The position numbers and the translations under genes are program-made. A stretch of 64,000 bases of DNA, taken from a bacterium (GTDB lineage: Bacteria > UBA10199 > JADFYH01). Where the stretch lies: assembly GCA_046346885.1 (NCBI GenBank), contig JAXMHI010000002.1:216768-280767 (forward strand), in the 5' to 3' direction. Shown here in pieces: positions 26,898 through 27,479 of the stretch. Each line of letters starts with the position of its first letter. Position 1 is the stretch's first letter. A model generated the notes under the pieces. It did not search any database. It was not told the DNA's origin and worked only from the letters and a program-made list of their open reading frames with translations.

Positions 26898-27479
26898 ATG
26901 GCAGATACAGTGATTAACGATACTTCAGCCCCTCAAATTGATGCTCGTGAGTTCGCTCGATCGGGAGAACGGGGTGCCATCAGCACGGGGCCCGGTAAGT
27001 TTGCGCAGCTTGTCGATGGACTTTTACCCGTAGCCCAAACGGCCAACCAATTATGGGGAAAACCCGTGATTGCGGCGGCCATGACGGTTCTGCCCGGTAG
27101 CGGTGGTCAAATGGCCGGTGCTTCTTCCCCCATGGGAGGCGGCGTTTTTGGCAGCGGCGGTGGCGGTGTTTTCGGTCGTTCTTCCATCACCGGACCTGGC
27201 GGTAGCACTGGCGGCGGTGGCGGAGTTCCTTTCGGTCCTCCCCCGGCTCCCCCGAGTGTGGGTGGCGGTTCTTCTGTGTCTTCCGCAGGCGGCATCCCCG
27301 GCATGGGGGGCGGCGCGGATTATCAGACCCAATTGGACAGCATGTTCAATAACAACATGATGTTCCTCATGTTGCAGACGAAAGTGCAGAACATGAGCCA
27401 ACAGATCCAGCTGACCTCGAACACCATCAAGGCGAAGGACGACGCGATCGCCAACACGATCCGTAACTTCCGCAGCTGA
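26898..27479 (+). CDS. needle-subunit-like (SctF-like) protein with long N-terminal and Gly-rich extension
   Basis: C-terminus MFLMLQTKVQNMSQQIQLTSNTIKAKDDAIANTIRNFRS resembles PrgI/MxiH ...YRNAQSNTVKVFKDIDAAIIQNFR. Central GGGVFGSGGGGVFG...GGSTGGGGGVPFGPPPAPP region. Good RBS (AGGAGG). Confidence 0.6.
   Translation: MADTVINDTSAPQIDAREFARSGERGAISTGPGKFAQLVDGLLPVAQTANQLWGKPVIAAAMTVLPGSGGQMAGASSPMGGGVFGSGGGGVFGRSSITGPGGSTGGGGGVPFGPPPAPPSVGGGSSVSSAGGIPGMGGGADYQTQLDSMFNNNMMFLMLQTKVQNMSQQIQLTSNTIKAKDDAIANTIRNFRS

Follow-up and report, generated by a model that had tools for sequence, protein, structure and literature searches.

This analysis concerns an open reading frame (ORF) at positions 26898..27479 (+) of a 64,000-nucleotide stretch of bacterial DNA, which as a whole is called the window here (GTDB lineage Bacteria; UBA10199; JADFYH01; GenBank assembly GCA_046346885.1, contig JAXMHI010000002.1, positions 216,768 to 280,767 of the forward strand). 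Its product of 193 amino acids (aa), referred to below as the focal protein, is likely a homologue of SctF, the needle subunit of Type III secretion systems (T3SS), and a component of the T3SS encoded around it. With more modest confidence we read it as an axial subunit of SctF type, divergent and exported, that belongs to a secretin-less, Myxo-type T3SS and carries a disordered extension. That the focal protein polymerizes we infer from its homology, from where its gene lies and from the occurrence of SctI and an SctP-like protein alongside it; the FliK/SctP-like protein implies a measured axial structure.

The ORF starts with ATG; the open segment extends upstream only as far as 26886, which leaves no room for an earlier in-frame start. 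A Shine-Dalgarno sequence, AGGAGG (26884..26889, +), lies 8 nt 5' of this ATG, and an (A)GGAG box is kept in the orthologue alignment. Codons 1-65 (26898..27092, +) specify a polar N-terminus, in which a hydropathy scan of the protein found no Sec signal peptide, followed by an F...L...P element and a hydrophobic G-x-x-V/I-x-A-A-x-x segment; both modules are kept in a 47-sequence alignment of the family, the latter as G-x-x-V/I-x-x-A-A-V/I-S-G. Codons 66-139 (27093..27314, +) specify a Gly/Ser/Pro-rich and, apart from one charged residue, uncharged segment with a PPPAPP core, predicted to be disordered from its composition and a predicted local distance difference test score (pLDDT) below 50. 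Gly makes up 42% of these 74 residues, Ser 16% and Pro 14% (72% together), and Tandem Repeats Finder found no DNA tandem repeat in the segment. Codons 140-193 and the stop codon (27315..27479, +) make up the conserved SctF-like C-terminal helix (...SNTIKAKDDAIANTIRNFRS), indicated by hhalign, the PDB profile search, a sub-threshold PF09392 match and AlphaFold2; its 54 residues include no Gly and no Pro, and the G+C content at third codon positions (GC3) of its codons is 0.87, inside the upper ~3% of windows. The protein as a whole is 19% Gly and lacks Cys. The unusual length and the Gly-rich insert, both singled out by an earlier, sequence-only reading of this DNA, hold up: the same layout recurs in homologues of 175-225 aa from ~14 independent contigs. 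An identical protein is deposited in NCBI as a hypothetical protein from a metagenome-assembled genome (MAG), with a precomputed PF09392.17 match recorded, its score absent. This identical protein and the same-layout homologues show the architecture to be genuine and not the product of a frameshift or a fusion error.

That reading had also matched the last ~40 residues to the C-terminal helix of the needle subunits, a claim for which direct comparison with the family's hidden Markov model (HMM) stayed below threshold and to which profile-profile comparison lent support. We built profiles from the C-terminal module alone because a full-length profile returned only low-complexity noise against the PDB. 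The SctF and SctI reference sequences were checked against the PDB, where YscF, MxiH, PrgI, BsaL and PscF were found at ~1e-29 to 1e-32 and PrgJ and MxiI at 1e-41 to 1e-47. A profile of 49 C-terminal sequences aligned by hhalign with seven canonical SctF sequences at P=1.6e-4 and a score of 23.7, over 37-40 columns ending at both C-termini; reversed profiles scored 7.5-7.7, and 200 column shuffles gave a mean of 9.0 (standard deviation 1.6) and a maximum of 15.6. Against SctI the focal family gave no match (P=0.82), and the neighboring 167-aa family, compared in the same way, matched SctI at P=5.2e-4 and SctF weakly at P=0.064. The two families are alike at P~0.002-0.004, as expected of paralogues. 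By these profile comparisons the focal C-terminal module is distinguishable from the paralogous inner rod protein SctI. Searching 177,635 PDB sequences with the 49-sequence profile returned seven matches at E<=10, all of them needle subunits (E=0.055-0.6); these were MxiH, PrgI and a fragment of SctF from a chaperone complex, and each was matched at its own C-terminus. No other SctF-like ORF was found in a six-frame scan of the 1,222 open segments of the 64-kb window.

The gene also occupies the position expected of a needle gene. Directly upstream is orf97 (26517..26810, +), a small, helical-looking protein in the position of YscE/CdsE, which gave no informative Pfam or PDB match, and downstream is a TPR protein (27569..28009, +) in the position of the YscG/CdsG/LcrH-like chaperones; each is kept at its place in all T3SS-linked loci. 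The TPR protein matched the NCBIfam models LcrH_SycD at 1.5e-11 and CdsG at 9e-9, both under the cut-offs, and its PDB matches were to generic TPR proteins only. The triad of small ORF, focal family member and TPR protein lies inside a T3SS cluster in about 19 loci. Those with both triad and T3SS synteny are L001-L004, L006, L012-L015, L016-L020 and L022-L025; the triad and the gene order around it were seen in five genome-collection loci, a 275-kb 'Deltaproteobacteria' MAG contig, one divergent locus and all nine of the nine informative metagenome contigs. Two Myxococcaceae-type loci have the order family member, TPR protein, orf, sigma factor, SctI-like, SctJ, FliG-like, SctL, N, O, P, Q, FliO, which is collinear with yscF-G...I-J-K-L and N-O-P-Q and places the focal gene in the yscF slot (ysc E-F-G). 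The window shares its gene order with L012 (a Myxococcaceae MAG) and L013, with proteins 30-61% identical (SctN 61%, the sigma factor 43%, SctJ 38% and the TPR protein 38%).

Expression signals around the gene are conserved as well. The sigma-28-type motif noticed in the sequence-only reading proved to be real: AACTTT-N15-CGATAA lies 5' of the focal gene (26824..26850, +) and, with a spacer of 15 or 16 nucleotides and together with a strong ribosome-binding site (RBS), is invariant in 7/7 aligned orthologous upstream regions, being present 5' of the orthologue in L001-L004, L006 and L014. The -10 box fits the sigma-28 consensus, GCCGATAA, the spacer being ~2 nt longer than in the enterobacterial one. 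The window has three copies of the motif in the form AACT(T/N)-N15-16-CGATAA, where 0.5 would be expected: before the focal gene, before orf182 (29031..29057, +; kept in L001, L003, L004 and L014) and, in the motif scan, before orf281 (40140..40166, +). These three genes form a candidate regulon, judged by the shared motif, of the FliA/WhiG-type sigma factor encoded in the cluster (30109..31008, +; TIGR02479, 1.6e-40). Downstream of the focal gene lies an intrinsic terminator (27508..27536, +) with a hairpin at 27508..27529 (a 9-bp GC-rich stem and a 4-nt loop) and 8 T. A hairpin and T-tract follow the gene in six loci, including L001-L004 and L006, and the stems of L004 and L006 differ in sequence. 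A strong terminator had been claimed earlier and is there, although it separates the focal gene from the TPR gene and does not, as the order given then would have it, follow both. With promoter, RBS and terminator all conserved, the gene is thus predicted to be expressed strongly and as a unit of its own, controlled by the FliA-like sigma factor of the cluster.

A word-indexed search for homologues found four relatives of 186-223 aa, and an exhaustive HMMER search yielded 63 representatives after clustering at 50%. All of the representatives finish in ...SN..K...D...N.IRN.R at the extreme C-terminus, while they range in length from ~80 to 270 aa and in Gly content from 1% to 22%; the Gly/Pro-rich center is therefore a variable module. 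A linker core of PPxPP or PGxAPGYPG recurs among orthologues in the 47-sequence alignment, and the linker varies in length and sequence. Among orthologues, good conservation is limited to the C-terminal ~51 aa, which are 48-69% identical, and neighboring genes are 50-85% identical over their full length.

In some family members the helix is fused to a domain homologous to orf281 of the window (blastp 2e-16 against the C-terminal domain of the L021 fusion). This shared domain, ...YTQ(W/F)V..TQLM.E.Q.TEREL.D.L..., lies in the C-terminal part of the Sec-signal-bearing fusions at L021:1099-2610 and L005:2746-3891, and in P0038 the helix and orf281-type motifs come in the reverse order; the orf281-type domain has no Pfam match. 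Such fusions suggest that the focal protein and orf281 act together as partners. A separate observation concerns P0020 (393 aa), in which the helix motif is internal and which has weak matches to a VgrG/gp5 OB-fold and a contractile-injection-system tube domain; the gene call may be chimeric, or the mosaic may be real.

A model of how the protein might work follows from this layout. The flanking orf97 and TPR proteins would hold the focal protein before export, and the T3SS would export it by way of its polar, signal-peptide-free N-terminus. The C-terminal helix would then dock or polymerize on SctI, with the N-terminal ~140 residues, that is the hydrophobic module and the 74-residue Gly/Pro linker, displayed outside the helical core as a flexible coat. 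This coat would be comparable to the exposed N-termini of canonical needle subunits and to those parts of Hrp pilins and flagellins that vary and lie on the surface. In the absence of a secretin from the locus, the structure may be short and periplasmic, or another outer-membrane conduit may be used.

A number of results weigh against assignment of the focal protein as an SctF-type axial subunit. In the HMM check proposed with the sequence-only reading, a Pfam scan of the full-length protein gave no match at E<=1, and the C-terminal 56 aa matched PF09392 with 14.5 bits (E=0.042), short of the cut-off of 29.4, the alignment keeping register with the model's end. Across 60 relatives PF09392 was the Pfam family matched by most members, with matches at E<=1 in 4/60 and a best E=0.0015; all of the direct HMM scores are sub-threshold. 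The helix-turn-helix hairpin looked for on the same suggestion did not appear either. AlphaFold2, run with 60 sequences, gave a mean pLDDT of 59.6 and one long helix at 140-192 (pLDDT 73-94), together with short helices at 34-49 and 58-62 of low to moderate confidence and a disordered Gly-rich segment. In a short-linker relative of 116 aa, also encoded in a T3SS locus, the C-terminal helix is confident and a helix at 35-49 is of low confidence and not confidently packed. Neither model has a confident packed hairpin; both are of monomers, and folding may still take place on assembly. The PxxP turn is also missing, the family having NNN aligned at the P-x-x-P position of SctF, and the N-terminal modules may be a displaced first helix, with the Gly-rich segment as an expansion of the loop, or else an unrelated extension. 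A Foldseek search of the AlphaFold2 model against the PDB gave no matches, as expected for a single helix plus disorder.

Context and family distribution add to this side. Pfam, NCBIfam and PDB profile searches did not demonstrate that orf97 and the TPR protein are homologues of YscE and YscG. No secretin was found within the 64-kb window or in 20 kb of L014, though one may be encoded elsewhere in the genome. Distant relatives of the helix module occur outside T3SS loci (L007:9899-10228, L010:10001-10174, L008:10001-10219 and L011:6726-7019). Two of these are syntenic and lie directly downstream of ftsE/ftsX/M23-peptidase genes, the others are found among unrelated genes, and such members retain the hydrophobic N-terminal module. 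About ten helix-module members have Sec-type signal peptides, and some bacteria embed the helix in a larger Sec-signal protein; these orphan, Sec-signal and embedded members indicate that the helix module is not confined to T3SS export.

Among the alternatives to an axial subunit, the one we take most seriously, while regarding it as unlikely, is that the T3SS exports the focal protein as a non-polymerizing cap, adaptor, plug or harpin-like helper, the helix serving only to dock on the SctI rod or the export gate and the disordered body acting outside, for example on a prey envelope. The composition would suit a harpin (19% Gly, no Cys, disordered), no hairpin is predicted, the system has no secretin and its relatives have been described as needle-less, and a role in docking or in binding a partner is suggested by the proteins in which the helix is naturally joined to an orf281-like domain. 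Set against this are the placement in a yscF slot with E- and G-like neighbors and no other candidate for F, as well as the measured axial structure implied by the SctP/FliK-like protein. Nor did the searches return a match above noise to any EspA, harpin or tip-protein family, the one weak hit among 60 members being to HrpA_pilin at E=0.0078. The occurrence of the helix outside T3SS loci raises the further idea of a general envelope or periplasmic helix module, of which the T3SS link would be a specialized use or a secondary recruitment and whose likeness to SctF would be convergent, as among amphipathic helices. Orphan members beside ftsE/ftsX/M23 and in unrelated contexts, members with Sec signals or embedded in larger proteins, and a similarity to SctF that lies in the twilight zone all fit such a module. 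The similarity to SctF is nevertheless specific: SctI, reversed profiles and shuffled profiles do not show it, and the alignment runs in register to the C-terminus. Wherever flanking sequence is available, the close relatives all lie in strict T3SS synteny, and the promoter motif is common to other genes of the cluster. We consider this reading distinctly improbable.

The third possibility, a secreted regulator like FlgM, has a low probability in our estimate. The disordered protein would then act against the FliA-like sigma factor, binding it by way of the C-terminal helix as an anti-sigma factor and leaving the cell once the basal body is complete, a scheme consistent with the FliA-type sigma factor encoded in the cluster, with the sigma-28-like promoter, as for flgM, and with a largely disordered protein having a single C-terminal helix. 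Yet FlgM (PF04316) was not matched, at any threshold tried, in any Pfam scan of the focal protein or its relatives, the C-terminus matches SctF specifically, and the flanking TPR protein and small ORF better suit the layout of a needle and its chaperones. An ORF created or fused by indel errors in the contig, to which the patchy frameshifts elsewhere in the window lend some color, is effectively refuted by conservation: the same architecture and length recur in ~14 independent contigs, promoter, RBS and terminator are conserved, and the identical protein was deposited independently.

The remaining genes of the cluster are largely those of a T3SS. SctV (FHIPEP; 19032..20948, +) matches PF00771 at 1.7e-183, with its N-terminus displaced by a frameshift. 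An SctD-like protein (24156..26411, +) combines FHA (1.5e-19), YscD cytoplasmic (Yop-YscD_cpl, 2.7e-17), PEGA (1e-27) and TPR domains; two PEGA domains and the TPRs replace the canonical periplasmic ring-building part, and the same architecture is found in L014. Following the TPR gene is that of SctJ, the inner-membrane ring lipoprotein (27966..28988, +; TIGR02544 at 1.2e-38 and PF01514 at 3.5e-24). Next is orf182 (29035..29583, +, with a likely ATG start at ~29083), a second small conserved protein that contains a Gly run (GMGGGGGSSAQGG), has orthologues in all orthologous loci and matched no family; on these features it may be another exported substrate. The SctI-like inner rod protein of 167 aa (31028..31531, +) matches TIGR02497 at 8e-4 and a local SctI profile at E=7.9e-7, and is the only ORF in the window selected by the canonical SctI profile. 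Domain scans placed a FliG-like protein in the SctK position, SctL, SctN, SctO, the FliK/SctP-like orf291 (PF02120, 8.8e-6) and SctQ at 31633..37309 (+), and orf281, preceded by the third sigma-28-like motif and homologous to the domain fused elsewhere to the SctF-like helix, at 40552..41421 (+). Two FHA proteins, a TPR lipoprotein, two small ORFs, SctR, SctS and SctT are further members of the cluster. The FliG-like protein (31633..32589) has FliG_M and FliG_C domains, lies between SctI/J and SctL and is kept in L001-L003 and L012-L014; FliG is listed as absent from Myxo systems (Abby & Rocha, PMC3459982).

Other features of the window are recorded here as side observations. Patchy frameshifts affect 16500..19200 and 37600..40000, where sctR, sctS and sctT are split over three frames, and the secA C-terminus, argJ and the sctV N-terminus are likewise split. 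We rejected pseudogenization of the T3SS as the cause of the split sctR, sctS and sctT, since the splitting extends to secA and argJ; with housekeeping genes among those hit, the frameshifts look like local assembly or sequencing indels and not like decay of the T3SS. Flanking the cluster are two sigma-54 activators with FHA domains and an 838-aa Ser/Thr kinase (44087..48127; 54281..55924), along with several further FHA proteins. By analogy with the kinase beside chlamydial T3SS genes, this suggests that phospho-threonine signaling may control the T3SS. A block of glycosyltransferase-like genes at 58845..63985 (-) has a GC3 of ~0.3, compared with ~0.65 in the rest of the window, and is probably a horizontally acquired polysaccharide locus.

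The broader proposal, which we put forward tentatively and hold to be less likely true than false, is that the 'needle-less' T3SS* of myxobacteria and related uncultured lineages keeps a highly diverged SctF, in which the hairpin is replaced or expanded by a Gly/Pro-rich extension of ~140 residues. If so, no loss of SctF took place at the base of the non-flagellar T3SS (NF-T3SS) tree, and the axial structure built by these systems would be chaperoned, timed by sigma-28 and covered by a flexible coat. It could take the form of a rod in the periplasm or of a filament coupled to another envelope machine, for example the Kil/Tad pilus, and a partner of the orf281 type may cap or decorate it. The focal protein would be the first needle-type subunit with a long disordered Gly/Pro module, and the literature searches turned up no account of an SctF that is long and Gly-rich, nor of any needle gene in T3SS*. 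An SctF-like gene in the F slot is a concrete, deletable candidate for the missing axial component of Myxo-type T3SS and bears on whether SctF was ancestral to, or lost in, that lineage. The cluster-encoded FliA-like sigma factor and the conserved motif before three small genes also make up a testable regulatory circuit.

Compared with other exported proteins of T3SS, the focal protein resembles the harpins (HrpZ, HrpN, Hpa1 and PopA), which are T3SS-exported, in being Gly-rich, Cys-free and largely disordered, but there is no homology, and harpins have no SctF-like C-terminal helix and are not encoded in an F slot. EspA is ~192 aa long, near the length of the focal protein. In EspA and the Hrp pilins (HrpA, HrpE and HrpY), polymerizing subunits that a T3SS exports, a conserved C-terminal helical part drives assembly and the variable part is exposed at the surface, as proposed here for the focal protein; unlike the focal protein, to which they have no significant sequence relation, EspA extends a separate SctF needle, and no other SctF is found in the window. 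The proposed system also follows the logic of flagellin and class-3 genes, with a sigma-28-type promoter, a late exported axial subunit, a conserved terminal helix core and a variable middle on the outside, although the protein has no flagellin domains and the focal cluster, encoding SctJ, SctI and an SctD-like FHA protein, is of the injectisome type.

The closest comparisons are with SctF itself and with the T3SS of myxobacteria. With PrgI, MxiH, YscF, PscF and CdsF the focal protein shares, in register, the C-terminal ~40 residues with Q..K/V...S..(S/T)N..K...D....I.NFR at the end, and its gene lies between a small ORF and a TPR gene, as in yscE-F-G and cdsE-F-G, in a locus with SctI and an SctP-like protein. 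It differs from them in length (193 aa versus 70-90), in having NNN for the P-x-x-P turn, in lacking a confident N-terminal hairpin helix, in its 74-residue Gly/Ser/Pro segment and extra N-terminal modules and in its sub-threshold HMM score; its locus also differs from SctF systems in having no secretin. The Myxo systems have been described as without secretin and SctF, with the remark that SctF 'should have been found' if present (Abby & Rocha 2012, PMC3459982), and reviews and a 2025 study report no needle homologue for the T3SS* of M. xanthus (PMC10433427, PMC12075869). How a needle-less T3SS moves its substrates to the outside has been asked in the 2012 evolutionary work and in work on predation from 2023-2025 (PMC3459982, PMC10433427, PMC12075869). 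The focal locus is like the M. xanthus T3SS* (MXAN_2434-2464) and the Myxo NF-T3SS in having no secretin and in encoding SctD, J, I, L, N, O, P, Q, R, S, T and V and an LcrH-like TPR protein. A query with the Myxococcaceae fragment gave no named M. xanthus orthologue but six matches, all from uncultured organisms, and cluster look-ups returned only MAG entries named 'hypothetical protein'. Unlike those systems as published, the focal locus comes from a MAG and not from a cultured myxobacterium, and it is headed by an SctF-like gene.

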